Positions 7,161-39,379 of a stretch of DNA of 64,000 nt are shown here, piece after piece. Each line of letters begins with the position of its first letter. Within the stretch, counting starts at the first letter, position 1. This DNA is from Thermodesulfobacteriota bacterium (GTDB lineage Bacteria > Desulfobacterota > Desulfarculia > JACQYL01): NCBI GenBank assembly GCA_963675595.2, contig CAXXLZ010000001.1:384001-448000 (forward strand). Reading direction: 5' to 3'. Below the pieces are notes generated by a model that ran no database searches, was not told where the DNA came from, and worked only from the letters and a program-made list of their open reading frames with translations. The translations under genes and the position numbers were made by a program.

Positions 7161-7169
7161 CGGTTTGAT

Positions 7170-8546: not shown

Positions 8547-8573
8547 TCGTTTTTCGATTGGAGGAAACCTGGA

Positions 8574-23752: not shown

Positions 23753-23843
23753 AACCGACTCGGATGGTCGAAATTCGCCAAGGCACGGTTCGAATTCGGA
23801 ACCCCGCCCCTCACTTCATTTCAACGGAATCGCGGAAAACATC

Positions 23844-25706
23844 ATGTCCTCCAGATTGAATTGTGGTTTCGGGCGGGTTTTGTTGGTTTCCACCCCATGG
23901 TCCCTGTTCGGTAGGCCGTCGATTCAACTCGGCGTTCTCAAAGCCTGCCTTGCGGAATCCATTCCGGACGTTCCAGTGGAGACGCGACCTCTGTATTTGC
24001 GGGTGGCGCAAAGGGTGGGATATCCGATCTATCGTGCGATTTCCGGCAAAACCTGGTTGGCCGAGTCGGTCTACGCCGCTCTTCTCTATCCGGACCTAAA
24101 GGATCGTGCGGAGTCGCTGTTTCACAAGGAGAGCCGGGGAGAGAAATCGCTACGCGGTCTTCGTTTTCACGAGTTGTGCGGTGAGATCGAAGAAGTATCC
24201 GCCGAACTGATTCATTCCGAGGATTGGGGGGAGGTCGGTCTGGTGGGGTTTTCGGCCTGCCTGTGTCAGCTCACGTCTTCCCTCTATTTCATACGAAAGA
24301 TCAAGCGGGACGTCCCTCAACTCCCCGTGGTTCTCGGAGGTTCACTGCTTATTCCCAAATCGGTTGACGGCTTCTTTCGGTGTTTTCCCGAGGTGGATTA
24401 CGTAATTCACGGTGAAGGTGAGATTCCTTTGACCCAACTGGTGCGGGCTTTGAAAGCAGGCGCCGGTCGTTCGGAATCCCTGAACATTCCCGGTGTGGTT
24501 TGCGGATCCCGTCCCAATGCTCCGGATCTCGGAGAGTTCGTTCAGGCGGAGGGGCTGGATCAGTTTCCGGCCCCGGATTATGATGATTATTTTGCCGTGT
24601 TGCGTTCTTTCCCCGCGTCCGCACGGTTCTTCCCCACGCTACCCGTGGAAGGCTCCAGGGGATGCTGGTGGCGTCGGAAGAATCAGGCTTTGGGACAGGG
24701 GTGCGCCTTCTGCAACCTGAATCTTCAGTGGAACGGATACCGGTCCAAGGGCGTTCAACGGTTCGTTTCGGAGATCGACCGCTTGACGGACCGCCACCAA
24801 TTACTGTCGGTGTCCGTAGTGGACAATGTGCTTCCTGCGAAGCAGAGTCGTGAAATTTTCTCGTCCCTTTCGGATCTGGACAAGGATCTGGGTATCTTCT
24901 GTGAAACCCGGGCCAACACTCCGCAAGAGCTTTTCCGGAAGATGGCGGAGGCCGGAGTAAAGGAGGTCCAGATCGGCATCGAATCTTTGAGCTCGAGCCT
25001 GCTCGGCAAAATGAACAAAGGGACGACCGCCGTGCGTAACCTCGAAGCCATGAAGTGGTGCGAAGAGTACGGCATCGAAAACAATTCCAACCTCATGGTG
25101 CATTTCCCCGGCAGTGAGGTGGAGGATGTGGAGGACACTTTGCGGGCTCTGGATTTCGCCGTTCCCTTCAAGCCGCTGAGAATCGTTCAATTCACTTTGG
25201 GATTCGGGAGCGCCGTCTGGTGCGATCCCGAGCGATTCGGCATCCGATCCGTGGGCAATCATCCCAATTACCGATGGTTGTTTCCGAAAGAAGTCTTCCG
25301 GTCCGTATGCTTCATCACACAGGGCTACCGGGGAGACTTGGGCTTGCAGAAGCGGATCTGGCGACCCGTGAAGGAAAAAGTGGCGGCCTGGGGGAAAGAT
25401 TACGAAAGGGCGAGGCGGGAGAACGGCGGACGATCCTGTTTGAGCTACAGGGACGGCGGAACCTTTCTGATCATACGCCGGAAGCGCGCCGGTGAAGAAC
25501 CCGTACTTCACCGACTCACGGGAAAATCCAGAGAAGTGTACCTGCTTTGCCGGAACAGCCGTTCATTGAAGCGTATCCTAACGACGACATCCCTGGCGGA
25601 GGATCGATTGCTTCCTTTCCTTCGAATGATGGTGGACAAGCGATTGATGTTCGAGGAGGGCGGGAGATATCTGAGCCTGGCGGTGTCCGGCGGAGCGAAA
25701 CGGTAG
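23844..25706 (+). CDS. B12-binding radical SAM protein, RiPP-maturation C-methyltransferase type (TIGR03975/PoyC-like)
   Basis: LVSTPW...PSIQLGVLKA, VVLGGS, GEGE, PDYDDYF, EGSRGCWW...CAFCNLN, QIGIESLS, MNKG; start taken at ATG 23844. Confidence 0.85.
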   Translation: MSSRLNCGFGRVLLVSTPWSLFGRPSIQLGVLKACLAESIPDVPVETRPLYLRVAQRVGYPIYRAISGKTWLAESVYAALLYPDLKDRAESLFHKESRGEKSLRGLRFHELCGEIEEVSAELIHSEDWGEVGLVGFSACLCQLTSSLYFIRKIKRDVPQLPVVLGGSLLIPKSVDGFFRCFPEVDYVIHGEGEIPLTQLVRALKAGAGRSESLNIPGVVCGSRPNAPDLGEFVQAEGLDQFPAPDYDDYFAVLRSFPASARFFPTLPVEGSRGCWWRRKNQALGQGCAFCNLNLQWNGYRSKGVQRFVSEIDRLTDRHQLLSVSVVDNVLPAKQSREIFSSLSDLDKDLGIFCETRANTPQELFRKMAEAGVKEVQIGIESLSSSLLGKMNKGTTAVRNLEAMKWCEEYGIENNSNLMVHFPGSEVEDVEDTLRALDFAVPFKPLRIVQFTLGFGSAVWCDPERFGIRSVGNHPNYRWLFPKEVFRSVCFITQGYRGDLGLQKRIWRPVKEKVAAWGKDYERARRENGGRSCLSYRDGGTFLIIRRKRAGEEPVLHRLTGKSREVYLLCRNSRSLKRILTTTSLAEDRLLPFLRMMVDKRLMFEEGGRYLSLAVSGGAKR

Positions 25707-25786: not shown

Positions 25787-28528
25787 TCATTGCGATGGGC
25801 GCTTTCCGAATCCTCGCCGGAGGGTGCCGGCGCGAAACAGCGCCGGCAGGAAGAAGACGGCGGCCGCAAGGGTGCTGATGCTGCCGACTGTGGCCAGAAG
25901 CCCGAGACTGAAGATTCCGGAGTGATGGGAGATCATCAGGCTTCCGAAACCCACCGTAGTGGTGAGTCCCGCCAAAACGACGCCTTTCGCCGTGCTGAAA
26001 GGTACTGAGAATCTTTCGGTGTTTGTATCCTGAGCCCTGAGTCTCTGCACCATGATAATGCCGTATTCCACTCCGGCCCCAACGACCAACGGAAGAAATA
26101 TGGTGTTGGCCAGGTTGAGATGCACGTCGAAAACGGACATGAGGCCCAGAGTCCAGATCGTCCCCACGAGAAGAGGGCTGATGGCCAGCCCCACCATGTA
26201 GAGGTTCCTGAAGACCACAAGCAACAACAGGAAAATGAAGGCAACCGCGTATACGCCCCCGCGAATGCAGGCGTCACGAAATTTCCTTGTGAAGCTGTCC
26301 AGGATGATGGGGTCGCCCACCACGTCCGGATCCACTGTTTGGATCTCTTTGACGAACCGGCTCATGAAGTCCGGTTGCCAGATGTTTCCGTCCGGAAAGA
26401 TTCGTATCAGGTATAGGCCTTGGGGGTCTACGAAAGACTCTCTGAGAAAGACGGGGAGGTCCCGGGGCTGCATGGGGGGCGCTTGGACATTCTCGCGCAG
26501 TAGCTCGAACCGGTCTTTCATCTCGTTAACCAAGGCCGTTTGATAGCCGGTCAGAATCTTGATCGCCCGGGAGGGTTCCACATCCGAAAGTTGCTCTCGT
26601 AATCGATCCAGCAGGTCCCTTGCCTCTTCCATGCGACGTCGCAGGGAGTCCGAGACATCGTCAATATCCGTGTCCGCGAGCTTGAAGCGAATCTTGCTCA
26701 AGATCGATTCCAGTTCCGAGAGACGGAGTGGTTGTTCCGGCTCGGAGATTCGGCCCGGGCCGGGAAGGGCGGCCTTGAGTTTCGCCATCAAAGGCACCTT
26801 GGCTTCCCTGTCTTGAGGAAGAAACGTCTCAACGCTCTGGACCTCGGAAACGGTGGGTAGTGACTCGAATCGTCGGGTACGCTCCTTGATCTCTTTTTTT
26901 GAGTGAGCCAAAGAAGAGGCGTACATGGTGGCTCGATTGGAATCGTTCAGCAGGCGATTGGCCCAGACAACGGACTCCGCCTCCCTGGACTGGAGATTCA
27001 AGAGATTGAGATCAAAGGAGACCTTTCGTGCGCCGATTAGGGAGGCTACGACAAGCAGGCCTCCGACGGCCAGGAAGAGCCCGGTTCTTTTGGGCGTCAG
27101 GATGTAGAAAACGGTGCGGGTGCCGGCGGTGCTTTGGATCGACGTCCTGCGGGGTGAACGGTCGAACAGCAGGGTGAGGGTAGGCAATACGCACAGGGTG
27201 GTCATGGTGGTCATGACCATGCCCATCGCGGTGATCACGCCCAACTCGGCCAGTCCTTTGAAACCGGTGAACGCCAGCGGAAGGAAGGACAGCGCGGCGG
27301 TTACTCCGGCGATGAGGATCCCGGGGCCGAGTTGAAGCATGACGGCTTCAACGATCTCTTTGCGTGGTTGACCGGGATTGATTCTCTCTTCTTCCTGGTA
27401 TCTGGCAAACCAGTGTATTCCGTAGTCGATACCCAACCCGAGGAGCAAAGGAGCAAAGGTCACCGAAAGAATGTTCAGGTGTCCGATGAACAAGGTTGTC
27501 AGGCCGAATGTGTAGGAAAGGGCCAGGATCAGTTCCGTGAGCTCGAGCATGGGCCTCCGCACGGAACGCCAGAAGGCGATGAGGAGAATTCCCAAGCCCG
27601 CCAAAGAAACCAGGGTGGCCGTGGTCATATCGTTTACCGCCACGGACATTTCGTCCATGTTGAGGGCTTCCTGACCCGTGACTCCGGCCCGAATGTCCGG
27701 AAAATCCTTCCGGACGAGTCCGATGTCATCCCTCAGTGCGGTGAGTGCGTGCTGGGCCTTGGTGAAACCGGACACCAGGGTGGGCGTCACGAATACGAGG
27801 AAGTAATCCCCTCCCGGTGTTCGGAAGTATCCCTCTAGTCCATCCTCGTTGAGCTCCTCCACCTGGAAGAAAGCGTTCCACGGTCGGACCGGGACGTTTT
27901 CTCCTTCCAGGCGCCGACTCATCTCTCCGAACAGCTCTATGAGGAACGAGATGTCTTCGTCTCGACCGCGGTTTCCTTGATCTTTCTCGGTATCCTCGTC
28001 CAGGAAGCCCGTGAACAGCTCGCCCACCATACCGACGGTGATTTCGCGGTTTACTTCGCGGAGAAGGCCTGGGAGCGAGGGGGAGTCAATGAGCCGAGCC
28101 ATCATGTCGGCTCGTTCTTCGATGCTTTGCACCAGATTTCCGAGTTCCGGCGTTCCCAGGAACCAGAGAGCCCACGAACGAAAATCATCCGGGTCGATTC
28201 GATAATCCACTTGTGCGTAATTCCGCGTATCCGATTCAAGTCGCGATGCGAGGGCACGGATGAATTCAACGGCGCGGTCGGCGTCCCGATTTTCCACCGC
28301 CACCACGAAACTGTCCATATCGTGGAAACGACGAGCCTCTTCGCCCAGGCGGACTATGCGTTCATCCGAGGATACCAGGTCTTTCCTGCTGGTCTGGAAT
28401 TCAAGATGAAGAAAGGTGTATCCCACGCTAACCAGGGCCAGGATAAGGGCCAGGGCAAGAGTGACCAAGGGGTATGCGGTAGTGATTCGAACGGACCGCC
28501 CCAGTGCTCTCTGGATTCCGGTCACCAT
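25787..28528 (-). CDS. MMPL/RND family transporter (HpnN-like)
   Basis: Two TM bundles with GLGIDYGIH and GAGVEYGI, TTTVGFGSL, and large periplasmic loops. Confidence 0.88.
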   Translation of the reverse strand: MVTGIQRALGRSVRITTAYPLVTLALALILALVSVGYTFLHLEFQTSRKDLVSSDERIVRLGEEARRFHDMDSFVVAVENRDADRAVEFIRALASRLESDTRNYAQVDYRIDPDDFRSWALWFLGTPELGNLVQSIEERADMMARLIDSPSLPGLLREVNREITVGMVGELFTGFLDEDTEKDQGNRGRDEDISFLIELFGEMSRRLEGENVPVRPWNAFFQVEELNEDGLEGYFRTPGGDYFLVFVTPTLVSGFTKAQHALTALRDDIGLVRKDFPDIRAGVTGQEALNMDEMSVAVNDMTTATLVSLAGLGILLIAFWRSVRRPMLELTELILALSYTFGLTTLFIGHLNILSVTFAPLLLGLGIDYGIHWFARYQEEERINPGQPRKEIVEAVMLQLGPGILIAGVTAALSFLPLAFTGFKGLAELGVITAMGMVMTTMTTLCVLPTLTLLFDRSPRRTSIQSTAGTRTVFYILTPKRTGLFLAVGGLLVVASLIGARKVSFDLNLLNLQSREAESVVWANRLLNDSNRATMYASSLAHSKKEIKERTRRFESLPTVSEVQSVETFLPQDREAKVPLMAKLKAALPGPGRISEPEQPLRLSELESILSKIRFKLADTDIDDVSDSLRRRMEEARDLLDRLREQLSDVEPSRAIKILTGYQTALVNEMKDRFELLRENVQAPPMQPRDLPVFLRESFVDPQGLYLIRIFPDGNIWQPDFMSRFVKEIQTVDPDVVGDPIILDSFTRKFRDACIRGGVYAVAFIFLLLLVVFRNLYMVGLAISPLLVGTIWTLGLMSVFDVHLNLANTIFLPLVVGAGVEYGIIMVQRLRAQDTNTERFSVPFSTAKGVVLAGLTTTVGFGSLMISHHSGIFSLGLLATVGSISTLAAAVFFLPALFRAGTLRRGFGKRPSQ

Positions 28529-28570
28529 CCGGGTCTCCGTATACGATGAATCAATGAGGATTGTTCAAGA

Positions 28571-29596
28571 TCAGGAGGGGTCACCGGCCGTGCCACCTTC
28601 CTTATCGACGGCGACCGTCGGTTTCGTGCGCTGCAACGAAAGGCTACCGACCGCGTAAAAGGCGAGCCCCATGAAGGCCCGAGCCAGTTGCTCCATCCTC
28701 AGGGCCACTCCGTAGGTGAGCCCGAGGGAATGGGGGAGGCCGAGGAGTCTGAACGACAACATCCGGGCGCCCTCCAATACCCCGATGTTCATGGGGATGG
28801 CGAAAGCCAGCAGATCGAACCAACTGCCCAGGAACCAGACCCAGGCCGCTAAGGCGATCGAGGATTCCCGCATCATGACGAGGAGAAATATCCAGCTCTG
28901 GACAATTCCACAGGCGAAACCCACGACGTGCCAGCCGAGAGACCGGAAGAAATCACCGCTGCGATGCCGGTAAAAGGATGCGAGTTCCTCGTCGACGGCG
29001 GTCAGGTGTCGAGCCAGCGTTTCCATGCGACGTCCGCCTAAACGGAGGACAAGCGGTCTTCGGAATACGGCGCCGAGTTTGCCCTTCTTCTGGAGATACA
29101 GAAAACCGAAGATTCCGCAGACCAATAGAAGGCTACCCGCAATCAGGGCGGGGCCCAACCCGGAGGGAAGGTCCACAAATCCGAGAAGGGTTAGGGACCC
29201 CGCCACCACGAACAATACCTGTGAAAGGGAATAGGTCAGCTTGTCGATAAGTACCGCGCCGGCCGCATGGGCGCCCGATTCATTCACGGACAAGAGACTT
29301 CCCCTGATTACCTCGCCCCCCAAGGAAGCGGTGGGCGTGAGATATCCGATGGCGTATCCGGACATGCGTATGCGAAACAAGGCGGTGAAAGGCAAGCGCC
29401 GGTGGCTTCCGGAAAGGCAGTAACGCCATGCCAAAGTGTGGAACCCGTCCGCGACGACCTCCACGGCGATGAACGGCAGCAGCGTCCATCCAAGGAGAGT
29501 GAAGTCGCCCAGGAGCTTTCCGGGGCCCACGTCCAGAATCAAAACGATCAGCAATGCGATGCCGAGGATCGCACTCCAGAGGTGGAATTGCTTCAT
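28571..29596 (-). CDS. Lysylphosphatidylglycerol synthase TM domain / flippase-like membrane protein (HpnL/AglD2-like)
   Basis: LAWRY, LTPTASLGGEVIR, IDK and PMNIGVLEG motifs; multiple TM segments. Confidence 0.82.
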   Translation of the reverse strand: MKQFHLWSAILGIALLIVLILDVGPGKLLGDFTLLGWTLLPFIAVEVVADGFHTLAWRYCLSGSHRRLPFTALFRIRMSGYAIGYLTPTASLGGEVIRGSLLSVNESGAHAAGAVLIDKLTYSLSQVLFVVAGSLTLLGFVDLPSGLGPALIAGSLLLVCGIFGFLYLQKKGKLGAVFRRPLVLRLGGRRMETLARHLTAVDEELASFYRHRSGDFFRSLGWHVVGFACGIVQSWIFLLVMMRESSIALAAWVWFLGSWFDLLAFAIPMNIGVLEGARMLSFRLLGLPHSLGLTYGVALRMEQLARAFMGLAFYAVGSLSLQRTKPTVAVDKEGGTAGDPS

Positions 29597-29618
29597 GGGC
29601 GGCTCGAAAAGAAGGTTG

Positions 29619-30686
29619 TCAGGGCGCGGCCGTCTTGACGGAGGCGGGTTGGTCTAAAGGCAGCGTTCGAGATCCTTCCTGATGAGATTGGTACGCGAGC
29701 TGCGTGATGCGTGCGCAAAGCAGGGCTTCCTGAAAATTTCCTCCGCGCGCCTCGGGATCCGTCAATTCTCGGTGAAAGGATTCGACGACGGCGTCCATCC
29801 ATTCAGGGTGATGGGAACTTCCGGATAAGGACTCGGAAAAACTCAAACGGCCGGGTGATGCGTCGGGGCACGAGAGGAGAATATGGTCGTCCAACATTTG
29901 GATCGATCCTTCGCTCCCCAGCACTTCTCCCAGGTTGCCTCTTGTTTCGGCGCGCCACGTCATGAAAATATGCGCTTGGGCCTTTTCAAACTCCAGGAAC
30001 AGGTTGACGGTTTCCTCCATTCTGGAACCGTCTTCCGGAAGGTGCTTCATGGAAGCCTGCACTCCCAAAGGCGCCTGGGACAGGAGGGCACAGGTCAGAT
30101 ACAGGTTGTGCCAACCGTGGTCCAGCAGGATGCCCCCCCCGGCGATGGTCGCCCGCCTTCGCCAATCCGTCGCGCCTCCGCCGGACGTGGGTGTACGCAA
30201 CACGTTGATTTTGACGGACTCCACGCGTCCGATCCGGCCCTCTGTAACGGCACGAATGGTTTCCTGCCATAGCGGCGCGTACTTCCAGTTGTTCACGGTG
30301 AAAACGATGGAGGGAGCGTCCACTAAAGCATGAACGACTCTTTCCATGTCCTCGATGGAGGTTACGAGGGGTTTTTCGCAGAAGACATGGCATCCCGCCT
30401 TGCATGCCTTCAGGATCAGCTCTCCGTGAAAACACGGCGGGGTGCAGATATCCACGAAATCTACGGTATCCCGGTCAAAGAGTTCTTCCGGAGACGAGAA
30501 TACCCGAACGTCCGGCAACAAATGCTTTGCGGCTCGGGCCCTTTCAGGGTCCGGCTCCACCACCGCCCGGATGCGGAATCTCGGGTCCTTTTGAAACGCA
30601 GGTACATGGGCGCGGGCCGCAACGTTTCCGAACCCGATGATCGCTCCGCTGAAAGGTCTCTCCTTTTCCGAGACGTTGGGCGACAC
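29619..30686 (-). CDS. Gfo/Idh/MocA NAD(P)-dependent oxidoreductase (inositol dehydrogenase family)
   Basis: IIGFGNVA, ICTPP..H, HVFCEKP and GGGILLDHGWH; GTG start at 30686 after AAGGAG. Confidence 0.9.
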   Translation of the reverse strand: MSPNVSEKERPFSGAIIGFGNVAARAHVPAFQKDPRFRIRAVVEPDPERARAAKHLLPDVRVFSSPEELFDRDTVDFVDICTPPCFHGELILKACKAGCHVFCEKPLVTSIEDMERVVHALVDAPSIVFTVNNWKYAPLWQETIRAVTEGRIGRVESVKINVLRTPTSGGGATDWRRRATIAGGGILLDHGWHNLYLTCALLSQAPLGVQASMKHLPEDGSRMEETVNLFLEFEKAQAHIFMTWRAETRGNLGEVLGSEGSIQMLDDHILLSCPDASPGRLSFSESLSGSSHHPEWMDAVVESFHRELTDPEARGGNFQEALLCARITQLAYQSHQEGSRTLPLDQPASVKTAAP

Positions 30687-30699
30687 GTCAGGCTCTCCT

Positions 30700-32043
30700 T
30701 TAAGAAGCGTAGGGCAAATTCTTTTCGACGAAATCAAAGACTTCTTCCAGGATTCCCAGAGCGGTTTCCGCCTCAGCCGTCGAAAGAATCAGCGGAGGAT
30801 TGATCCGGAAATTGGCCTTGTAGTTCATGCAGAGCAAACCTCTGTGCAAAGTCTCAAGGAAAATTCGCCGGGTATGGTCTTTGCTCATGGGCTCTTTGGT
30901 CTTTCGATCCTTGACCAGTTCGACGCCGATCAAGAGCCCCCGTCCGTCCACCTTGCCGATGAATTCGAATTTGTCTTGGAGCTTCTTCAAACCTTGGAGC
31001 AGAAATTCGCCCACTCGTCGGGAATTCTCCACCAAATCGTCATCCAGGATGGTGCGGATGGTGGCCAATGCCGCGGCGCTCGCCAGGGGATTCCCCCCGT
31101 AGCTGCTGGAAGATGAACTCGGTTTCGAAAACGGCTTACTGGAAGAGATTTCCGTGGTGGAAACCAAGCCGCTGATGGGAAAACCGTTTCCCATGCCTTT
31201 GCCGATGGTCATGATGTCCGGGACGATTCCGGTATGGTTGCTCCCGAACAGAGCACCGGTACGGCCGAAGCCGGTGATCATCTCGTCCGCGATAAGAAGC
31301 GCGTTGTTTTCCTTGGCGATTTCCGTGAGCCCGATGAGAAACTCTTTTGGAGGAATCACGTTGCCCGCCGTGCCCTGGATCGGCTCGACCAGAATGGCGG
31401 CCAAGCTGCCCGCGGTGTTGCGCTGTATGAATTCCCTGCAGAAATCCAGGCAGAAGATTCCGCAGGACGGATATTCCATTCTGAAGGGGCAACGGTAGCA
31501 GTCTGCATAAGGAGCCAGATGATAGCCGGGATGCAGCACACCCCAGTTCTGCTTGAAGGGGTCGCCCAGCAGGCCCAATACGCCGCCGCTCTTGCCGTGG
31601 AAACCTCCCCAAAACGAGAGGACCTCGAATTTGTTGGTGTGAGCTTTGGCAAGACGCAGAGCGGCTTCCACCGCCTCCGCACCTCCGCTGTACAGCATGG
31701 TTCGATTCAGATCGCCGGGAGTGATTGAAGCTATGGTCCGCAGCAGTTCAAACCTGCTTTCCGAGGTGAAGCTTCCCACGGTGATTGTGTCCAATTGCTC
31801 TTTGATCGCTGCGATGTATCGGGGATGAGAATGTCCAAGGCTGCAGACAGCGATACCGGCCATGAAATCCAGGTATTCCCTTCCATCCAAATCTTCCAGC
31901 CGACAACCGTTTCCCCTCTTGAGCGTCAAACGGGCAAGCTGCGCCACTTCCTGCAGTCCCGGGGCAATGTATTTTTGTTCCTCGTCACAAAGTTTGCCGG
32001 AGAGCGTGTCGAAAGAACGTGAAGCATTGGCGTACTCTGTCAT
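30700..32043 (-). CDS. Class III PLP-dependent aminotransferase
   Basis: YLDFMAGIAVCSLGH, SGGAEAVE, FHG, EPIQG, DEMITGFGRTG, GKGMGNG. Confidence 0.93.
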   Translation of the reverse strand: MTEYANASRSFDTLSGKLCDEEQKYIAPGLQEVAQLARLTLKRGNGCRLEDLDGREYLDFMAGIAVCSLGHSHPRYIAAIKEQLDTITVGSFTSESRFELLRTIASITPGDLNRTMLYSGGAEAVEAALRLAKAHTNKFEVLSFWGGFHGKSGGVLGLLGDPFKQNWGVLHPGYHLAPYADCYRCPFRMEYPSCGIFCLDFCREFIQRNTAGSLAAILVEPIQGTAGNVIPPKEFLIGLTEIAKENNALLIADEMITGFGRTGALFGSNHTGIVPDIMTIGKGMGNGFPISGLVSTTEISSSKPFSKPSSSSSSYGGNPLASAAALATIRTILDDDLVENSRRVGEFLLQGLKKLQDKFEFIGKVDGRGLLIGVELVKDRKTKEPMSKDHTRRIFLETLHRGLLCMNYKANFRINPPLILSTAEAETALGILEEVFDFVEKNLPYAS

Positions 32044-32864
32044 GAATTAGGTCCATTTAATTGTTTTGCGACATAAGAGGCGATTCCCCCTGCGGCGGAG
32101 TTGCAGCATCGGGAAAAGCTGGGCCAGTCGTTGAGATCGACGAGCAATACCCCGCCCGAAGGGGTCAGGATAAGGTCCCCGCCGTATATTTCCAGTCCGG
32201 CGGCATCGGCCGCGCGACGAACGCAGTCCACGAGGGCGGAAGAAGGGGAGTCGATCAGGGTGCCGTCCGGGATACGGTAGGCACGGAAGTAGGCGCCCTT
32301 ACCTACGCCGTAAAATTTCACTTCTTCTCCCCGCACGTGCTCTTGAAGCAGAATTTCACGGATGTCCGACTCTCGATAATGGCGCAACGCGATTTCCAGG
32401 TCTTCGTCCGATTCGACCAGAACCACGTCTCCTTTCCTGACGGCATGCACGTCCCCTCGTTTCAGCCAGAAGGGAAACGGAAAAATGGAGGAAGGCTCCT
32501 TCCTTTCCAACTCTTCCGTGGAAACGATTCGGCTGGAGGGCATGGGAACGCGGGCATCCTCGAGGGCTCGAATAAGAGATGCGCGAAAGCAGGTGCGAAC
32601 CGATCGCACGGAATTGACGATGCGGACTCCGTTCGTGCCCACTCGCTCCAACTCGGCAAGGGCCTCACGAGATTGAGCCATACTGAGCACGAGAGCCCGA
32701 TCGCCTTTGAGCATCGCGATCTCGTCGAGTCGCAGCGTACGAGTGCGAAAACCGAGGCGTGACAGCTCTGCAAGACTTTTCTGCAGAATCGCGGCGTCCT
32801 CCGAAACCTTGCCCGGAGAGAAGACCGATTCTCTGAGCACGCCGTAAATCATTGTCGGATTCAA
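32040..32864 (-). CDS. ATP-grasp fold protein (RimK/GSH-synthase-like ligase)
   Basis: FPFWLKRGD, LLQEHVRG, KFYGV, YGGD and DLNDWPSF motifs. Confidence 0.75.
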   Translation of the reverse strand: MNPTMIYGVLRESVFSPGKVSEDAAILQKSLAELSRLGFRTRTLRLDEIAMLKGDRALVLSMAQSREALAELERVGTNGVRIVNSVRSVRTCFRASLIRALEDARVPMPSSRIVSTEELERKEPSSIFPFPFWLKRGDVHAVRKGDVVLVESDEDLEIALRHYRESDIREILLQEHVRGEEVKFYGVGKGAYFRAYRIPDGTLIDSPSSALVDCVRRAADAAGLEIYGGDLILTPSGGVLLVDLNDWPSFSRCCNSAAGGIASYVAKQLNGPNS

Positions 32865-33571
32865 TGGCCGCCCGTTTCTCTGAGGTAGTCCTCAGCTTTC
32901 TGGATGTCCGCCGGGTGATCCACGTCAATGGTCTTCGGGATCGGCACACCATACAGGGGAAAGCCGGACTCCGTCAATAGCGCGAGAAACTCTCTGAGAG
33001 CTCCGAGATTGCGCCGTCGAGCCTCCGGGATCAGAGTAAAAATATCGGGACCGAAATGGTACAAACCCGCCGTCACAAAAGGAGTGGGGCGCGCTTCGGG
33101 ACCCAAACGCATTATTCGGCCCGAAGAATCGTCCATTTTGGCCCAAAGAGGTTTTTCGTCGTCGACATAGTCGGTCAGGGCCAAGACGGCCCCCGCATCC
33201 GAAAAAGTCAGTGCCTTGGACAAGAAAAGCGATGGAACCTCGGGGCGAAACACCGCATCCACCGTGAAGAGCAGAAAGGGTTCTCCTCCAAGTAACGGTT
33301 GAAGTCCAAAAAGACTTTCCATGGAACTAGGCGTCGTCCGAACCACCAGATCGACCGGGAGCGGCCAGGGACCACGCTCCAAATACGTCTTCACTTCGAC
33401 ATTCACTTCGTTGATGATGCACGCCACCGATTCGGCGCCTGCGGAGTGCGCGGCTTTGATGACCCTGGCAATCAAGGCGTCGCCCAAGATGGGGACCAAG
33501 GGTTTGGACACGGGAATTCCGCCTTTTGTCATTCTTTCTCCCATGCCCGCCGCAATAATTCCCGCTTTCAT
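32861..33571 (-). CDS. NTP-transferase (nucleotidyltransferase)
   Basis: IIAAGMGERM...SKPLV, TVD and IDVDHPAD motifs. Confidence 0.9.
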   Translation of the reverse strand: MKAGIIAAGMGERMTKGGIPVSKPLVPILGDALIARVIKAAHSAGAESVACIINEVNVEVKTYLERGPWPLPVDLVVRTTPSSMESLFGLQPLLGGEPFLLFTVDAVFRPEVPSLFLSKALTFSDAGAVLALTDYVDDEKPLWAKMDDSSGRIMRLGPEARPTPFVTAGLYHFGPDIFTLIPEARRRNLGALREFLALLTESGFPLYGVPIPKTIDVDHPADIQKAEDYLRETGGH

Positions 33572-34260
33572 GACAGTAACGCCTCCAATTGATCCAGCGC
33601 CGTGATGCAGGCGTCGATCGCCCCGGGTGCCTCAGGCAATCTGGGATTCGGCCCTTTCATCCAAATCGTGACCATTCCCAGCTCTCGGGCCGGTACCATA
33701 TCTCGTTCGAAGGAATCTCCTACGAAGGCCACTTGCTCCGGGGAAAGCCCCAGGGAAGCGATCGCCGTTCGGAATAATCGAGGATCGGGTTTGGCTAATC
33801 CGACTCGGGTAGAGTCCAGAATCACGTCGAGAGACGAGGCGAGGCCTGCCTCGCCGCAAAGCACCTCTACGTTGCCGTAGAAATTGGACACTACCCCCAT
33901 GCGGAATCTGGGACGGAGTCCCGCTAGTATGACGGCGTTTCGGGAAAGGAAAGACTCCGTTTTCTTGCAGAAACTTCCGACGATTTCGGCTTCTCCGGCC
34001 GGATCATCGATTCCCAGCTCAAGAAACTGGAGATGAACGTGGTGGGTCATCAGTGGGCGAAGGCCCAAAATATTCACACTCGGGTCTTCATCGCAACGGC
34101 GATCCGCCTGGTAAAAAACTCGCTTAATCTCCTCGAAGGGAATATCCGGAAGGCTCTCGCGGTAGTGTTCTACGAACCTGTCGAGCCAGTGTTCGCCGTC
34201 GGAGTCCAGCGTCCCGCCGAAATCGAAAAGGATCCCCCGACAACCGGAGATCCTTTTCAT
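33568..34260 (-). CDS. HAD-superfamily hydrolase
   Basis: FDFGGTLD, VVSN, KPDPRLF and VGDSFERD motifs; start uncertain (34260 or 34287). Confidence 0.9.
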   Translation of the reverse strand: MKRISGCRGILFDFGGTLDSDGEHWLDRFVEHYRESLPDIPFEEIKRVFYQADRRCDEDPSVNILGLRPLMTHHVHLQFLELGIDDPAGEAEIVGSFCKKTESFLSRNAVILAGLRPRFRMGVVSNFYGNVEVLCGEAGLASSLDVILDSTRVGLAKPDPRLFRTAIASLGLSPEQVAFVGDSFERDMVPARELGMVTIWMKGPNPRLPEAPGAIDACITALDQLEALLS

Positions 34261-34329
34261 ATTGTTACATATTTCCGGAACAATCACGTGACTAATTTAT
34301 CCTGAAGGATTGGAACCCCACATCGATCT

Positions 34330-35505
34330 TTAGATTTCAGTGGCTTTCCTCACGGGAACCTGCTCGTCGGGGGTGGATCGAGGTTCATTGGACGACGCGG
34401 CTCGGACCCCCCAACTTCCTTGAATAAAGGCCTCCGTCATGCGGAACGCCTCGTCGTCGCTGTACTGTCGGGGAGGATGTTTCATGAAATAAGAGGAGGG
34501 TGCGTATAAGACGCCGCCTTCTCCCCGGATCAGCGCCAGTTTGCAGCAACGGATCGCATCAATGACCACTCCGGCGGAGTTGGGCGAGTCCTCCACGGAA
34601 AGGCGCAGTTCCAGGTTCATGGGAACGTCGCCGAAGAGCTTGCCTTCCATTCGGATGAAACACAGCTTGTTGTCTTTCTGCCAAGCTACATAATCACTGG
34701 GACCGATGTGGATATTCTCGTCCTCCAGCCGACGCGCGGCCACGGATTGGACCGCCTCGGTCTTGGATTCCTTTTTCGAAAGCAGACGAGAGCGGTTGAG
34801 CATATTCAGAAAATCGGTATTTCCGCCGGTGTTCAACTGGTAAGTGCGCTCCAGTTTGGCTCCTCGTTTCTTGAACAGATCGGTCAGGGTGCGATGAACG
34901 ATGGTCGCCCCGAACTGAGACTTGATGTCGTCTCCGATGATGGGCAGTTTCTTCTCGGCGAATCGAGCGGCCCATTCCGGATCACTGGCGATGAACACCG
35001 GAATGTTGTTGACGAACGCGGTTCCCGCTTCGAGAGCGCATTCGGCGTAAAACCGGGCGGCCTGCTCGGACCCCACCGGTAGATAGTTCAACAGCACTTC
35101 GGCGCCCGACTCTTTCAACACGGACACCACTTCTTCTTTGGTCGGCTGCGGTTTATCGGCGGGGACAAAGGTGTATGAATCCGGATAATCCTTCATGTGG
35201 TCCGAAAAGCCGTCCAGAATTCGCCCCATTCTCACGGAAACGCCCGTTCGTTGAATATTTTCACAGAAAACTTGGGTGCAATTGGGCGCTTGGAATATGG
35301 CCTCCGACAGGTCTTTGCCGACTTTCCGACTGTCGATGTCGAACGCCGCCACCACTTCTATGTTGTGCGGTTTGTAGCCGGCGATGTCCAAATGCATCAA
35401 ACCGATGGCTTCATCGCCCGTCCTGTTCAGATAGAAATGGATCCCCTGTACCAGAGAGCTTGCGCAGTTCCCAACTCCGATAATGGCGATCTTGATGTTC
35501 TCCAT
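34330..35505 (-). CDS. ino1: myo-inositol-1(3)-phosphate synthase
   Basis: GVGNCASSLVQG, NYLPVGSE, GDDIKSQ, QLNTGGNTDFLNM, DSPNSAG and FMKHPP motifs. Confidence 0.96.
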   Translation of the reverse strand: MENIKIAIIGVGNCASSLVQGIHFYLNRTGDEAIGLMHLDIAGYKPHNIEVVAAFDIDSRKVGKDLSEAIFQAPNCTQVFCENIQRTGVSVRMGRILDGFSDHMKDYPDSYTFVPADKPQPTKEEVVSVLKESGAEVLLNYLPVGSEQAARFYAECALEAGTAFVNNIPVFIASDPEWAARFAEKKLPIIGDDIKSQFGATIVHRTLTDLFKKRGAKLERTYQLNTGGNTDFLNMLNRSRLLSKKESKTEAVQSVAARRLEDENIHIGPSDYVAWQKDNKLCFIRMEGKLFGDVPMNLELRLSVEDSPNSAGVVIDAIRCCKLALIRGEGGVLYAPSSYFMKHPPRQYSDDEAFRMTEAFIQGSWGVRAASSNEPRSTPDEQVPVRKATEI

Positions 35506-35619
35506 CAGTGGTTCATCTCCTTCCTCGGTCTCCTAAAAGGCGGGTACGTCAAAGCTGATAACCCGCAGCCCCCTTGGGTTTCCGACAGGTGATCGTATGG
35601 AGGTCCAGCTGTGTGATGA

Positions 35620-35736
35620 AAAAAGGCGAAAACCAAAGGCACGATGTTCGTGCCTGCATCAGGTTTCGGCAGGCACGACGGTTTCAACTCGTACGCGGGA
35701 TGCCGAAGCCGTTCGAGGACAATTTGGGTTTTCGCC
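35620..35736 (-). promoter_or_regulatory. Structured leader upstream of ino1 with competing hairpins and a U-tract
   Basis: 10-bp outer stem 35625-35634/35727-35736; segment 35648-35657 can pair with either 35637-35644 or 35669-35678; T-run follows on the minus strand. Confidence 0.5.
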
Positions 35737-36016
35737 GATTCGTATTCCGAGTCGTCAGAGCAAGATCGACGGGGACACGGACCCTCCCTTGTTGCATCAA
35801 TATGACCTAAAAAGAGCGTATCCCCTGCTTAAAGCCGCCTGACGCTTTTTGTCAATGACTTGTTAGCATTTTGCCGTAATTGTGTAAAGCACTGTCTCGT
35901 GCCGGGGCCTCTCTTAACGTAAGCGTCACGGGACGAGGAGCGGTTTTTTCCCCCTCCACGACGACTGAAACGGCGAAAGCGCGTGAGTAAGGCTTCATCG
36001 GGCGAGAAACGTCCAA

Positions 36017-37054
36017 GTGGTCTCGCAAGCAGGGAGTCTTGGAAACACAGGGGGGTGGGATATGCTTTGTCTCCGAATTGTCACAAACGGATGGAAGCCG
36101 CTCATGGATTGCGATCGTCTATCACGCGCCGTCTTTGTCTTTCAGGGTCAGCCATGACAATATCAGGAAAAAGGCCGGCGAGCCCAAGGCGCTCAGTATG
36201 AGGAACCATTCCAGTTTGCCCCACAGTGCCAGGATCACCACCAGATAGATAAAATCTCGTCGGGTCAGGGCGTCCGCCACCCTGCCGAGGCGGCCGGGGG
36301 CGGCGGTGGTTTGAACGGAGGTGAACAACGGGCCGTCTCCGCTTTTACGGCGCATGGTGCGCCAATACACCAGTCCCGCGGAACCGATGGTCCCCAATAC
36401 CGCGGACGCGGAAAGGACGAGTGGAACCTGGGAAGTGATCCGGTCGCTCCAAGATAGGCCGATGCAGAAGAACACGGCACAGTGGACCACGTTATCTCCC
36501 CAGAAGTCCAGAAGCCCTCCGAAACGACTTTCCTGGTGGTCTCGCAAGCAGGGAGTCTTGGAAACACAGGGGGGTGGGATATGCTTTGTCTCCGAATTGT
36601 CACAAACGGATGGAAGCCGCTCATGGATTGCGATCGTCTATCACGCGCCGTCTTTGTCTTTCAGGGTCAGCCATGACAATATCAGGAAAAAGGCCGGCGA
36701 GCCCAAGGCGCTCAGTATGAGGAACCATTCCAGTTTGCCCCACAGTGCCAGGATCACCACCAGATAGATAAAATCTCGTCGGGTCAGGGCGTCCGCCACC
36801 CTGCCGAGGCGGCCGGGGGCGGCGGTGGTTTGAACGGAGGTGAACAACGGGCCGTCTCCGCTTTTACGGCGCATGGTGCGCCAATACACCAGTCCCGCGG
36901 AACCGATGGTCCCCAATACCGCGGACGCGGAAAGGACGAGTGGAACCTGGGAAGTGATCCGGTCGCTCCAAGATAGGCCGATGCAGAAGAACACGGCACA
37001 GTGGACCACGTTATCTCCCCAGAAGTCCAGAAGCCCTCCGAAACGACTTTCCTG
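36017..37054. repeat. Exact 519-bp direct tandem duplication (36017-36535 and 36536-37054)
   Basis: Both copies start gtggtctcgcaagc and end gaaacgactttcctg; the ORF track gives identical translations offset by 519. Confidence 0.97.
36122..36535 (-). pseudogene. Duplicated 3' fragment of the CDP-alcohol phosphotransferase gene
   Basis: QESRFGGLLDFWGD...KDKDGA* is identical to the C-terminus of 36641-37816. Confidence 0.85.
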
Positions 37055-37816
37055 AAACTTGATCCGGGCGATTTCCCCGTCACAGCCGTCCAGGATCGAA
37101 TGGCCCAGAAACAACAGAGCCCCAGCCACTTGTACGGCGAGGACGTCCGGGACCATGAGCAGGGCTCCCAGCAGGCCCACGGTCAGGCTGATCAGAGTCA
37201 TCTGGTTGGGAGTGATGGAGGTGTTCACCAAACGCCGACTCAAAGCCAGAGAAATCCTGCGTTCGAAATGCCTGGACATGAAGCCTTCAGTGTCTTTGAT
37301 GAGAGACCTGAACAAATTTCGTTCAGCCTTTTCCAGTTTCCGTCTATCCCGAACATCATAGATCGTTCCCGAAACGGTTCGCGGTGACGGGTTCTCTCGC
37401 TCCACGGCGTGACGGATTTCGGAGAAACTTCTCTCGACCCACACGACACGCAATAATTCAACTGCGGTGTCGCCCGGCAGACCCAACACTTCGGGGCTTC
37501 CCGCCACGGTGAAAGGTACATCGTTCGGCGAAGTTTCCTGAATGCTCTCCAAGAATTCCATATCCGGGAGGTAACCGTTTTCAAGAAGGATGTACAAACT
37601 GCCGGGCCGATCGCCCACTTCTTGAGCACTCGATGCGAACACCGCGCCGCATTCCGCCACTTCACGAGGCACGGGTCGCTCACAAAGCACGACGACTTCC
37701 CGTATTCCAGCCTTCTTCGACGCCGACACCAGACGTTGAAGAAGTGGGAGTCCGGCTACACGCACGGCCGTGTTCGGCTCGGTTCCGAGAGCCGATATCA
37801 CCAAGACGGTCTTCAA
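36641..37816 (-). CDS. CDP-alcohol phosphotransferase (DIPPS/PIP-synthase-like) with a degenerate N-terminal NTP-transferase-like domain
   Basis: ITPNQMT and DGCDGEIAR...GGLLDFWGD signature; N-terminal VAGLPLLQRLV...AGIREV; TTG start at 37816 after GAAGGA (37870 possible). Confidence 0.9.
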   Translation of the reverse strand: MKTVLVISALGTEPNTAVRVAGLPLLQRLVSASKKAGIREVVVLCERPVPREVAECGAVFASSAQEVGDRPGSLYILLENGYLPDMEFLESIQETSPNDVPFTVAGSPEVLGLPGDTAVELLRVVWVERSFSEIRHAVERENPSPRTVSGTIYDVRDRRKLEKAERNLFRSLIKDTEGFMSRHFERRISLALSRRLVNTSITPNQMTLISLTVGLLGALLMVPDVLAVQVAGALLFLGHSILDGCDGEIARIKFQESRFGGLLDFWGDNVVHCAVFFCIGLSWSDRITSQVPLVLSASAVLGTIGSAGLVYWRTMRRKSGDGPLFTSVQTTAAPGRLGRVADALTRRDFIYLVVILALWGKLEWFLILSALGSPAFFLILSWLTLKDKDGA

Positions 37817-38036
37817 AACGAATCCTTCGATCTTTTTTACATGGGTGCGTCGCAAACCCGCACGAAGCACGACCGGGAAGAAGAGCTTCTCGCCGGCGAA
37901 GTCCTCAACGCAGGAAAATCAATGAACCGGGAAGCCTGGAATTTCTCACAACGGGAGGCCGACTTCAAGAGCTTCAAAGAAGCCGAGCGCTCCCGGCCGA
38001 GACCGATTGAGGGCGGTTCGGTCTCGGGTCCCTCCG

Positions 38037-39098
38037 TTATCGAATCGGCGGGACTCCTGCGGAGGTGGTGGGACTCTTGCGGAGACGGAGTTGATTCCAT
38101 AGGTGTATCGCATAGAACAGGGGCACGTGGTCGCGCAGGGAAGGGAGAGAACCCAATAGTTCGGAGTTCTCGTCCGTTTGAGGGATTTCTTCGTGAATCT
38201 CACCTTGGGCATCAATATATTTCAACTTTCCCACATGAACATAAGGCGGGAAAGGGGGAAGCTCGGTCACCACGTCGTTGTGGTGCACAAAACGGTAAGC
38301 GGTGACGGGAAATCGATTCCGAAATTCTTCGTCGCCCACCTTGGGGGAACCGAAGGTGTAAAGACCCTGGATATAGGGATAACGGGAAGCCGCCACGGTG
38401 GCCAGCGCCGCTCCCAGGCTGTGGCCCGTGAGCCAGATTTTCGATCCTTCGGCTCTAAGGGCGTCCAGATAAGCTCTTAATCCCTCCTTTTCCCAGACTT
38501 CGTCCAACGCCTCGTTGAAACCATGGTGGACTTTGCCTCCTGCCGGGATTTCATCCATCCAAAGGGAGAAGTCGGTCCTTAAGTCGTTAATAATGTTTAG
38601 GATGTCGTACCATTGCCCCTCGGAGCGGACTTCGGTTCCGCGAAAGGCCACCACGGTGAAGTTTCCCTTACGGGCCGTGAAGCACTGGGTGCTGCGGCCG
38701 CTGAAAAACCGCACGTCGGAAAAACCGGCTTTTTCAAACTCTCTCGTTACAAACCCTGGTGAAGCGAAGACCAGGGTGGACGCTTCAATAAGCCACCACG
38801 CATTGACGAGGTCGAACCTTTCCGCGTAGGGGTTGAAGGGAAAGGATCGATGATCCTTGAAATACTCGTAATCCGGATAGGGGGGGCGCAGGTTTTTCAG
38901 AGTGATCTCAGGAAGGGGCCTCTTTTCAGGGCGTTGACTGTCGAGGACGGAATTGTCGTCCCGATCGGAAGGCTCGGCGGCAACCCCCCAGGCCGGCTCC
39001 CGCAGGTTCGGCAGGTCGGTCGAGAGCGCATATGAAGAAACCTGAGATACAAAAATTAGAGCGACGAAAATGAGGATCCCGGTCTGTAAGTGTTTCAT
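38037..39098 (-). CDS. Secreted lipase, class 3
   Basis: Signal peptide, VAFRGT, VHHGF, TGHSLGAALA, TFGSPKVG and NDVV motifs; ATG 39098 with AGGAG RBS. Confidence 0.9.
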   Translation of the reverse strand: MKHLQTGILIFVALIFVSQVSSYALSTDLPNLREPAWGVAAEPSDRDDNSVLDSQRPEKRPLPEITLKNLRPPYPDYEYFKDHRSFPFNPYAERFDLVNAWWLIEASTLVFASPGFVTREFEKAGFSDVRFFSGRSTQCFTARKGNFTVVAFRGTEVRSEGQWYDILNIINDLRTDFSLWMDEIPAGGKVHHGFNEALDEVWEKEGLRAYLDALRAEGSKIWLTGHSLGAALATVAASRYPYIQGLYTFGSPKVGDEEFRNRFPVTAYRFVHHNDVVTELPPFPPYVHVGKLKYIDAQGEIHEEIPQTDENSELLGSLPSLRDHVPLFYAIHLWNQLRLRKSPTTSAGVPPIR

Positions 39099-39379
39099 CA
39101 GGGTTCTCCTTTCGTGCGGCCGTTCCATTGAGCGGCGGAGTTGATTCCGTGGGAGCGCCGCCGTGAGAAGGGCGAAGTCGGCCAGTCCTTTGAATGCGGC
39201 TTGTTTCCTTTGACACCGAGGAACAACATCGGCTTAATCGATCTCAACGACGGTGGAACAATCTCCGACGGAAGGCCCGTCGTCGGAACCTCGGGGGTTG
39301 ATATTCACGAAGAGGTCTGTTCAGGGATTCCCCCCTCGTCCGGTTATGGACTACTATTCCCTATGGGGGGCAACGAGCT

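Follow-up and report, generated by a model that had tools for sequence, protein, structure and literature searches.

Known systems and the cluster described here

Inositol lipids are regarded as rare in bacteria. This work deals with a cluster of nine genes in a 64-kb stretch of a Thermodesulfobacteriota genome (GenBank assembly GCA_963675595.2, contig CAXXLZ010000001.1, positions 384,001 to 448,000; the window), which is one member of a widespread and conserved family of gene clusters. We give about an even chance to the view that this cluster makes and exports a membrane lipid with a head group derived from inositol phosphate, in which a core set of enzymes produces a cyclitol activated by cytidine diphosphate (CDP) and an additional two-gene module optionally aminates it.

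The closest described system is the "alternate cluster" of Bacteroides vulgatus and Prevotella. As presented in the main text of Heaver 2022 (PMC9246714), it consists, beside a MIPS gene, of an NTP-transferase-domain protein, a CDP-alcohol phosphatidyltransferase, and a HAD hydrolase, with genes for LPG-synthase-like and carboxypeptidase-regulatory-like proteins in the vicinity. According to the same text, inositol phosphoceramide is produced in B. vulgatus and P. veroralis, two species without the B. thetaiotaomicron genes; the authors propose a Kennedy-type route via CDP-inositol, which they call unconfirmed. The window encodes all of the main components listed there, namely Ino1/MIPS, the NTP transferase, the CDP-alcohol phosphotransferase, the HAD protein, and the LPG-synthase-like neighbor, and the NTP transferase of the Prevotella type shares 33% identity with the window protein over the full length of the latter. 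This gene set is also found, with the addition of an ATP-grasp enzyme, in a Bacteroidales locus (L080) that encodes an NTP transferase, TetR, ATP-grasp, a CDP-alcohol phosphotransferase, LPG_synthase_TM, HAD, MIPS, and a DUF5686/CarbopepD_reg protein. In contrast to the cluster in that main text, the window has an extra dehydrogenase, a class III aminotransferase, and an exporter of the RND family. The first two of these argue for a modified product rather than a plain phosphoinositol lipid, such as phosphoinositol dihydroceramide (PI-DHC) or phosphoinositol diacylglycerol (PI-DAG).

Genes of the cluster

The cluster in the window comprises the following genes:

25787-28528, minus strand: MMPL/HAE3-type RND transporter, HpnN-like (Pfam MMPL)
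28571-29596, minus strand: LPG_synthase_TM/HpnL-like membrane protein (Pfam LPG_synthase_TM, residues 10-301 of 341)
29619-30737, minus strand: Gfo/Idh/MocA NAD(P) dehydrogenase (three Pfam GFO_IDH_MocA domains)
30700-32043, minus strand: class III (omega-type) pyridoxal phosphate-dependent aminotransferase (Pfam Aminotran_3, PF00202, E 8e-100)
32040-32864, minus strand: ATP-grasp enzyme of an unnamed family (AlphaFold2 model and Foldseek; start at TTG 32864 or ATG 32852)
32861-33571, minus strand: sugar/cyclitol-phosphate nucleotidyltransferase, probably a cytidylyltransferase (Pfam NTP_transf_3, NTP_transferase)
33568-34287, minus strand: HAD-IA small-molecule phosphatase (Pfam Hydrolase, HAD_2, Hydrolase_like)
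34330-35505, minus strand: myo-inositol-3-phosphate synthase (Ino1) of the short bacterial/archaeal type (Pfam Inos-1-P_synth, E 7.8e-35)
36641-37870, minus strand: CDP-alcohol phosphotransferase, DIPPS/AF2299-like (Pfam CDP-OH_P_transf, residues 220-356)

These nine co-oriented genes lie at 25787-37870, where a first-pass annotation of the window, made from the letters alone, had located them, and eight of the nine names that it gave match Pfam and NCBIfam families. It had also listed three stop/start overlaps. Those at 33568-71 and 32040-43 are indeed ATGA, whereas the one at 32861-64 reads TTGA and exists only if TTG is the start of the ATP-grasp gene; the ATG 12 nt further on is the start of a database protein with 98% identity. 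For the dehydrogenase, GTG 30686, preceded by an AAGGAG-like ribosome-binding site, is the likelier start. The phosphotransferase starts at GTG 37870 or at TTG 37816, the latter being the end of the cluster in the first-pass annotation.

The phosphotransferase translation carries the motif D-x2-D-G-x2-A-R-x8-G-x3-D-x3-D. Its best solved relatives are AF2299 (4o6m, E 3.8e-21) and IPCT/DIPPS (4mnd, E 2.9e-17) of Archaeoglobus fulgidus, with the similarity confined to the membrane domain. The N-terminal cytoplasmic domain of about 170-200 amino acids is devoid of recognizable nucleotidyltransferase motifs: residues 1-145 have no Pfam or NCBIfam match that would indicate a fused cytidylyltransferase domain of the IPCT type, and phmmer aligns only residues 149-284 to 4mnd. 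The archaeal solute pathway shares with the window this phosphotransferase subfamily and the combination of Ino1 with a cytidylyltransferase and a phosphatase. It differs in that the NCBIfam IPCT/DIPPS model NF041135 (cutoff, 580 bits) assigns only 116.6 bits to the window phosphotransferase and 42.7 bits, a weak match, to the nucleotidyltransferase, and in that the lipid-transport surroundings of the cluster are foreign to solute synthesis. Taken alone, the DIPPS/AF2299-like phosphotransferase would suit a solute.

Ino1, located 42 bp upstream of the HAD gene, scores 437 bits with TIGR03450, under the cutoff of 638. The best NCBIfam model for the dehydrogenase is iolG (81 bits; cutoff, 355), and its best solved relatives are glucose-fructose oxidoreductases. 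The aminotransferase stays under every NCBIfam equivalog cutoff; its nearest solved relatives are gamma-aminobutyrate/omega-type transaminases and racemases, of which the top one scores only 257 bits. In the known routes to scyllo-inosamine (streptidine, rhizopine), a ring hydroxyl of inositol is oxidized and the resulting ketone is transaminated by an aminotransferase of the DegT/DnrJ/EryC1/StsC type. The analogy with these routes drawn in the first-pass annotation holds for the logic of oxidation followed by transamination and for that only, because the aminotransferase encoded here belongs to class III and not to the DegT/StsC type. The low score of the dehydrogenase with iolG, although this is its best model, may be another difference, and the scyllo-inosamine routes yield a secondary metabolite or a signal, whereas the product proposed here would be a lipid.

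Both membrane proteins of the window find their best NCBIfam models among the hopanoid hpn genes. The RND transporter scores 515 bits with HpnN (TIGR03480; cutoff, 752) and 287 bits with BstA, and the 341-residue protein scores 103 bits with HpnL (TIGR03476; cutoff, 196); relatives of the cluster add a true HpnJ and an MlaC-like (HpnM-like) protein. However, both window proteins score under these cutoffs, and HpnJ is absent from the window as well as from many carriers of the core. We know of no hopanoid pathway that includes Ino1, a CDP-alcohol phosphotransferase, or an ATP-grasp enzyme. The 341-residue protein also matches the family of the transmembrane (flippase) domain of MprF, and this flippase-like domain is its sole Pfam match. 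It differs from MprF in the absence of the C-terminal aminoacyl-phosphatidylglycerol synthase domain; any acylation would need another enzyme.

Conservation of the cluster

The ATP-grasp protein was chosen as the probe for its mid-cluster position and its lack of a named family. Among 8000 scored candidates, more than 1269 relatives are found at E ≤ 1e-3, including one in Syntrophobacter fumaroxidans. A genome scan with one genome per species returned 580 candidate stretches, 561 of which encode an ATP-grasp relative. The best 80 of these 561 stretches were analyzed with up to 10 kb on each side; contig ends truncate many of them, and the 52 that retain at least 5 kb on either side constitute the well-flanked set. 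Gene order in each locus was established by tblastn with the window proteins and with proteins from the loci, and eight loci were also annotated with Pfam. Judging by the record titles and the taxonomy labels of the tree, the 80 loci span Desulfobacterota, Verrucomicrobiota, Ignavibacteriota, Bacteroidota, and Binatota. Those from Desulfobacterota (Thermodesulfobacteriota or Myxococcota in the records) come from Syntrophobacteraceae, Syntrophorhabdales, Desulfarculales, and the isolate Desulfoferrobacter suflitae. The gene families are distributed as follows:

HAD: 71 of 80 loci, 49 of 52 well-flanked
NTP transferase: 74 of 80 loci, 49 of 52 well-flanked
Aminotransferase: 64 of 80 loci, 44 of 52 well-flanked
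Dehydrogenase: 57 of 80 loci, 44 of 52 well-flanked
CDP-alcohol phosphotransferase: 56 of 80 loci, 45 of 52 well-flanked (two or more copies in 14)
HpnL-like (LPG-synthase-like) protein: 43 of 80 loci, 31 of 52 well-flanked
Ino1, either of two divergent types: 26 of 80 loci, 18 of 52 well-flanked
HpnJ-like radical SAM protein: 24 of 80 loci, 17 of 52 well-flanked
MMPL: 21 of 80 loci, 14 of 52 well-flanked

Six of the 80 loci have all nine families of the window; the complete set of seven biosynthetic families is found in 16. In the well-flanked set, the aminotransferase and the dehydrogenase are always paired (44 of 44) and never occur singly. Wherever an aminotransferase gene is present (64 of 64 loci), it is the next gene after that for the ATP-grasp enzyme and on the same strand, and in 65 of the 74 loci with an NTP-transferase gene, the latter lies immediately ahead of the ATP-grasp gene. 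The arrangement is far beyond chance. Sequence identity of the aminotransferase orthologues to the window protein is 69-74% in most Desulfobacterota loci (49% in L010 and L023) and 49-64% in the other phyla. Thus, the association of the inositol and CDP-alcohol genes with those for the dehydrogenase, the aminotransferase, and the ATP-grasp enzyme is conserved across phyla, and the possibility raised in the first-pass annotation, that it might not extend to other genomes, does not apply.

Ino1 comes in two forms. Desulfobacterota relatives encode an enzyme that is 69-80% identical to the one in the window, directly upstream of the HAD gene. The clusters of Ignavibacteriota and Bacteroidota contain, at the other cluster end, a longer Ino1 (Pfam NAD_binding_5) with 25-27% identity to the window protein. 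Ino1 and the aminotransferase are found together in 22 of the 80 loci. The recruitment of two divergent Ino1 types in different phyla, which bears out the inclusion of this gene in the cluster, is the best argument for inositol.

Some loci encode additional, potentially tailoring enzymes. A 384-residue GNAT-domain protein is encoded between two CDP-alcohol phosphotransferase genes in Verrucomicrobiota (13064-14218 of L045, minus strand, and 10 further loci), and a sulfotransferase is found in three Desulfobacterota loci (L017, at 3206-4549, L020, and L022), which suggests further decoration of the head group.

The ATP-grasp enzyme

The ATP-grasp protein of the window has no Pfam match at E ≤ 1e-3, and its NCBIfam matches to RimK/LysX are only at about 1e-3. 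The AlphaFold2 model derived from 30 family members (pLDDT 89, pTM 0.86) shows, in Foldseek, similarity to ArgX, LysX, RimK, PsnB, and the D-Ala-D-Ala ligases (Ddl), with E values from 1e-16 to 1e-13 and TM scores of 0.64-0.75. Because a confident model matches these enzymes, the assignment of the protein to the ATP-grasp fold in the first-pass annotation is correct, although it is the fold and not Pfam that bears it out. Across the 30 family members, Pfam detects ATPgrasp_ST weakly in 22 (best E, 5.7e-7) and RimK in 9, whereas the inositol-trisphosphate kinase family (Ins134_P3_kin) matches none of them. A profile search of solved structures yields only marginal similarities, to RimK-type ligases (E 0.05-0.1) and, over a C-terminal stretch, to inositol phosphate kinases (E 0.28 and 0.84).

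In 8 of the 52 well-flanked loci (including L036-L039 and L080), the ATP-grasp gene is retained in the absence of the aminotransferase and dehydrogenase genes. In module-less clusters (L027, L031, L036-L040, L042, L047, and L080), it is found between the NTP-transferase and HpnL-like genes. A quick tree of 78 ATP-grasp sequences, built after L003 and L008 (in-frame stop in the matched stretch) and L047 (length) had been dropped, places the module-less clusters inside module-bearing clades, so that at least three changes are needed. The same tree contains a separate clade (L024, L028, L030, and L035; support, 100) in which the ATP-grasp gene stands without any other gene of the cluster; in L028, it adjoins genes for a response regulator, a methyltransferase, and a DUF1614 protein.

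Fusion proteins provide further evidence. Longer ATP-grasp relatives number 189 at E ≤ 1e-10 among 7999 candidates. In the best 120 of these 189, an NTP-transferase domain is found in 116 proteins, one of which also has a HAD domain (NTP-GRASP-HAD); P0244 joins the ATP-grasp domain to a class III aminotransferase (GRASP-aminotransferase), another protein joins it to a CDP-alcohol phosphotransferase (GRASP-CDP-OH), and two include a PAS/histidine-kinase unit. The HAD protein is joined to the NTP transferase in L045 and in P0262. The NTP-ATP-grasp fusions (e.g., P0349, P0297, and P0253) are about 542 residues long, with the ATP-grasp domain behind the NTP-transferase domain, and two of those with 542 residues bear the name [quoted passage not shown] One of these two is P0349, with which the NTP transferase of the window aligns over its entire length at residues 1-236 (33% identity) and the ATP-grasp protein of the window at residues 252-514 (28% identity). 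Pfam recognizes only the NTP-transferase half of such fusions, leaving the ATP-grasp domain hidden in their annotations, which might explain why the published description speaks only of an NTP transferase: the term "ATP-grasp" does not occur in the main text of Heaver 2022 (PMC9246714) or in four of its supplementary files. A search with the Bacteroidales ATP-grasp protein finds at least 4484 protein clusters, and the best 120 matches include no Bacteroides or Phocaeicola record. The ESM Atlas yielded unnamed clusters only.

These fusions tie the HAD phosphatase, the nucleotidyltransferase, the ATP-grasp enzyme, the aminotransferase, and the phosphotransferase into one pathway. The first three form an inseparable core. 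The ATP-grasp protein is a core enzyme and not part of the amination module, because it is kept without that module, with at least three origins of this state on the tree, and is fused to the nucleotidyltransferase.

Lipid transport genes

Genes for HpnL-like, MMPL, OEP, MlaC, MlaE, or MlaD proteins, at least one of them per locus, are found in 33 of the 52 well-flanked loci. The Desulfobacterota clusters encode LPG_synthase_TM, OEP, an HpnN-like MMPL protein, and MlaC, with the OEP and MlaC-like genes flanking the MMPL gene in relatives of the window. In Ignavibacteriota, an MlaE-MlaF-MlaD set is inserted between the NTP-transferase and ATP-grasp genes, and some loci have AsmA/YhdP-like and Kdo-transferase genes nearby. 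Because flippase-like, RND, OEP, MlaC, and MlaFED genes recur in the clusters of several phyla, a membrane lipid is favored over a solute, in agreement with the first-pass annotation.

In Syntrophobacteraceae, the gene order is HpnJ, a B12-binding radical SAM protein, followed by HAD-NTP-GRASP-aminotransferase-dehydrogenase. In the locus of D. suflitae DRH4 (L016), the HpnJ gene (7106-8566) is directly upstream of the HAD gene, and its product scores 739 bits with TIGR03471, above the cutoff of 578. Orthologues with 48-83% identity are found in 24 of the 80 loci, all from Desulfobacterota and sometimes together with Ino1. Neither HpnI nor HpnK was seen next to HpnJ in the two HpnJ loci with Pfam annotation (L016 and L018), and no squalene-hopene cyclase was seen among the annotated open reading frames (ORFs) of the 64-kb window. 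In an excerpt of a preprint (PMC12324291), HpnJ domains are reported only from genomes with squalene-hopene cyclase and HpnH, and HpnL is described as a protein of unknown function. HpnJ could either act on an amino-cyclitol or amino-sugar head group made by the cluster, or indicate that part of the family feeds composite hopanoids.

Proposed pathway

The gene families, their conserved order, the fusions, and the association with lipid transport suggest the following sequence of reactions. Ino1 would convert glucose-6-phosphate to inositol-3-phosphate, from which the HAD phosphatase would release free inositol. In clusters with the two-gene module, the Gfo/Idh/MocA dehydrogenase would oxidize one ring hydroxyl to produce an inosose, and the class III aminotransferase would convert the inosose to an inosamine. 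The ATP-grasp enzyme might then phosphorylate free inositol or inosamine again at the expense of ATP and so give the nucleotidyltransferase its substrate, which the latter would turn into a CDP-cyclitol, as in a Kennedy-type route. At the cytoplasmic face of the membrane, the DIPPS/AF2299-like phosphotransferase would transfer the activated head group onto a lipid alcohol. In this order, each soluble enzyme is employed a single time. The LPG-synthase-TM-like protein would flip the resulting lipid, and the HpnN-like RND pump would carry it towards the outer membrane, with OEP and MlaC-like proteins as likely partners in the relatives. In clusters without the amination module, the core might turn inositol-3-phosphate into a differently phosphorylated inositol before activation. 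One could speculate that this re-phosphorylation sets the stereochemistry of the phosphodiester or permits the salvage of free inositol.

We infer both the substrate of amination and the reaction of the ATP-grasp enzyme. The amine is placed on inositol from the gene context. For the ATP-grasp enzyme, a kinase role is preferred, with ATP-dependent ligation on the head group as the alternative; inositol-phosphate kinases with the ATP-grasp fold do exist (the ITPK family).

Several observations weigh against this pathway. The nearest structures to the ATP-grasp model are amide or ester ligases, and the kinase role is without direct support. All enzymes of the cluster stay under the curated cutoffs of the function-specific NCBIfam models, an assignment of the dehydrogenase and the aminotransferase to inositol is beyond homology alone, and the familiar inosamine routes rely on an aminotransferase of another family. 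Ino1 is missing within 10 kb from 34 of the 52 well-flanked loci and, at the same distance, from all 13 Verrucomicrobiota loci. The presence of a true HpnJ beside the cluster in 24 of the 80 loci points towards hopanoid chemistry, and the window itself is devoid of the OEP, MlaC, and HpnJ genes of its relatives. Finally, the order of the steps is tentative in view of the phosphatidyltransferase-HAD fusion of P. veroralis, described in the main text of Heaver 2022 (PMC9246714), which fits a HAD enzyme that acts after the membrane step.

A still broader proposal would be that at least five phyla share an undescribed class of envelope lipids, phospho-aminocyclitol lipids of the inosamine type, that the ATP-grasp enzyme, which would define the pathway, is a cyclitol kinase and, together with the HAD phosphatase and the cytidylyltransferase, supplies CDP-inositol or CDP-inosamine through a Kennedy-type route, that the module-less core represents the missing enzymology of the inositol sphingolipids of Prevotella and B. 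vulgatus, and that HpnJ rearranges the head group in Syntrophobacteraceae. In this full form, it is doubtful.

Alternative explanations

In a version that spells out the proposal of the first-pass annotation, CDP-inositol is made directly from the Ino1 product and passed to the lipid, the ring is aminated, and the ATP-grasp enzyme adds an amino acid to the amine, with the HAD protein removing leftover phosphate. Its general outline of a conserved inositol and amination cluster that serves a lipid rather than a solute is supported; the N-aminoacylation is not, and the comparison with scyllo-inosamine is imprecise. As a whole, this version appears unlikely, even though the ATP-grasp model is closest to the amide-forming ArgX, LysX, and RimK and Pfam gives weak ATPgrasp_ST and RimK matches. 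The invariable position of the aminotransferase gene after the ATP-grasp gene (64 of 64), the fusion of the two enzymes in P0244, and a partner membrane protein of the MprF flippase-domain type also fit an aminoacylated product. However, the ATP-grasp enzyme is kept where the dehydrogenase and the aminotransferase, and with them the new amine, are absent, a state with at least three origins on the tree, and its commonest fusion partner is the nucleotidyltransferase (116 of the best 120), Prevotella-type proteins included. The plain inositol phosphoceramide reported for P. veroralis and B. vulgatus in the main text of Heaver 2022 (PMC9246714) weighs in the same direction. If the cluster instead modified and transported hopanoids or other polycyclic lipids, its soluble enzymes would supply an amino-cyclitol or amino sugar for a composite bacteriohopanepolyol, and the HpnN-like pump, the HpnL-like protein, MlaC (HpnM-like), and HpnJ would act on the extended hopanoid. 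The true HpnJ of L016 with its orthologues, the best models of the two window membrane proteins, and the restriction of HpnJ to genomes with the cyclase and HpnH, along with the unknown function of HpnL (PMC12324291, excerpt), are consistent with this idea. Nevertheless, the two window proteins remain under the HpnN and HpnL cutoffs, HpnJ is absent from the window, no cyclase was noticed among the annotated ORFs there, and neither HpnI nor HpnK is seen next to HpnJ in L016 and L018. The core is also found without HpnJ in Ignavibacteriota, Verrucomicrobiota, Binatia, and Bacteroidales, and Ino1 and CDP-alcohol phosphotransferases are foreign to the hopanoid pathways that we know. For the window cluster, the hopanoid explanation is a minor rival and quite improbable.

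Alternatively, the dehydrogenase, the aminotransferase, and the HAD protein might act on a sugar phosphate by the logic of the NtdC/NtdA/NtdB kanosamine route, yielding an amino sugar phosphate head group, with Ino1 serving a second, plain inositol lipid. The composition of that route (a Gfo/Idh/MocA dehydrogenase, an aminotransferase, and a HAD phosphatase) is the same, Ino1 is absent from the vicinity of the cluster in most of the well-flanked loci (34 of 52), and the occurrence of two different CDP-alcohol phosphotransferases in 14 of the 52 and of two nucleotidyltransferases in L045 and L080 leaves room for two head groups. Against it stand the recruitment of two divergent Ino1 types in different phyla, the spacing of only 42 bp between the Ino1 and HAD genes of the window, and the class III aminotransferase, as opposed to the DegT type of NtdA; we consider an amino sugar to have a slim chance. 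The slimmest is that of a soluble phosphodiester similar to di-myo-inositol phosphate, perhaps aminated, with the membrane proteins being unrelated neighbors or solute exporters. The phosphotransferase is indeed closest to archaeal IPCT/DIPPS and AF2299, both by model and by solved relatives, and a cytidylyltransferase and a phosphatase complete the known solute pathway. But the DIPPS model scores far below its cutoff, LPG_synthase_TM, HpnN-like RND, OEP, MlaC, and MlaFED proteins recur in the clusters of several phyla, and the main text of Heaver 2022 (PMC9246714) connects an inositol sphingolipid with the related cluster of Bacteroidetes. A link to the aminopentanetetrol lipids of thermophiles was considered and dropped as unsupported; the titles and abstract openings of the papers that mention them did not deal with their biosynthesis.

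Gap, duplication, and flanking genes

The cluster is not contiguous: about 1.1 kb separates Ino1 from the CDP-alcohol phosphotransferase gene. Two features, neither assigned to a strand, are found there:

36017-36535 (second copy) and 36536-37054 (first copy): perfect 519-bp tandem duplication (519 consecutive identical bases at offset 519)
35506-36016: about 510 bp upstream of Ino1 with no convincing ORF (only short overlapping ORFs)

The 519-bp unit consists of the last 414 bp of the phosphotransferase gene and 105 bp downstream of it. The second copy leaves a 141-codon remnant ORF (36122-36547), and the translations of the two copies are identical; a repeat search picks up the duplication as well. 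The duplication could be a very recent event or an assembly artefact. The region at 35506-36016 is presumed to be a promoter or leader. The Rfam and tRNA scans, which found no Rfam family and no tRNA in the whole window, offer no RNA element as an explanation of the gap. Predicted promoters and terminators are about as numerous as in shuffled sequence and are uninformative on the limits of the operon.

The flanking genes compared with the loci code for a class 3 lipase (lipase_3), a radical SAM protein, a DnaJ-like ORF, an M1 peptidase, and a 1215-codon ORF. None is conserved in the 80 loci, where only weak, domain-level radical SAM matches were found, and they were rejected as members of the cluster. 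The lipase gene (38037-39128, minus strand) lies 166 bp upstream of the phosphotransferase gene and fits the lipid theme; it is absent from all 80 loci. The 674-residue B12-binding radical SAM protein (23682-25706, plus strand), whose gene is convergent with the last gene of the cluster and is not conserved beside it in the 80 loci, exceeds the cutoff of TIGR03975, a C-methyltransferase of the maturation of ribosomally synthesized and posttranslationally modified peptides (RiPPs). The 1215-codon ORF (40408-44055, minus strand) overlaps a 727-codon ORF on the opposite strand (40234-42417, plus strand) in the most G+C-rich stretch of the window (0.62). It has no match in Pfam or NCBIfam and no relative in the loci.

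Implications

Neither an amino-inositol lipid nor this gene set was found in a literature search, which, with most subscription journals outside it, is not proof of absence; the search also found no lipid reports relevant to the carriers of the cluster. What is most likely new here is a CDP-cyclitol-type pathway to inositol lipids that is extended by an amination module and a dedicated exporter and that includes an unrecognized core enzyme. The sole published model of a CDP-inositol route, that for gut Bacteroidetes, is unconfirmed, and its main text is silent on the ATP-grasp domain (Heaver 2022, PMC9246714). The cluster family described here is widespread and carries its own export machinery, and it suggests that one enzyme domain is missing from the description of a pathway with relevance to the human gut. 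The presence of the amination module in most of its members predicts a zwitterionic or cationic cyclitol head group. Such a head group would alter the charge of the cell envelope, the resistance to antimicrobial peptides, and the interpretation of lipid biomarkers from anoxic sediments and soils.

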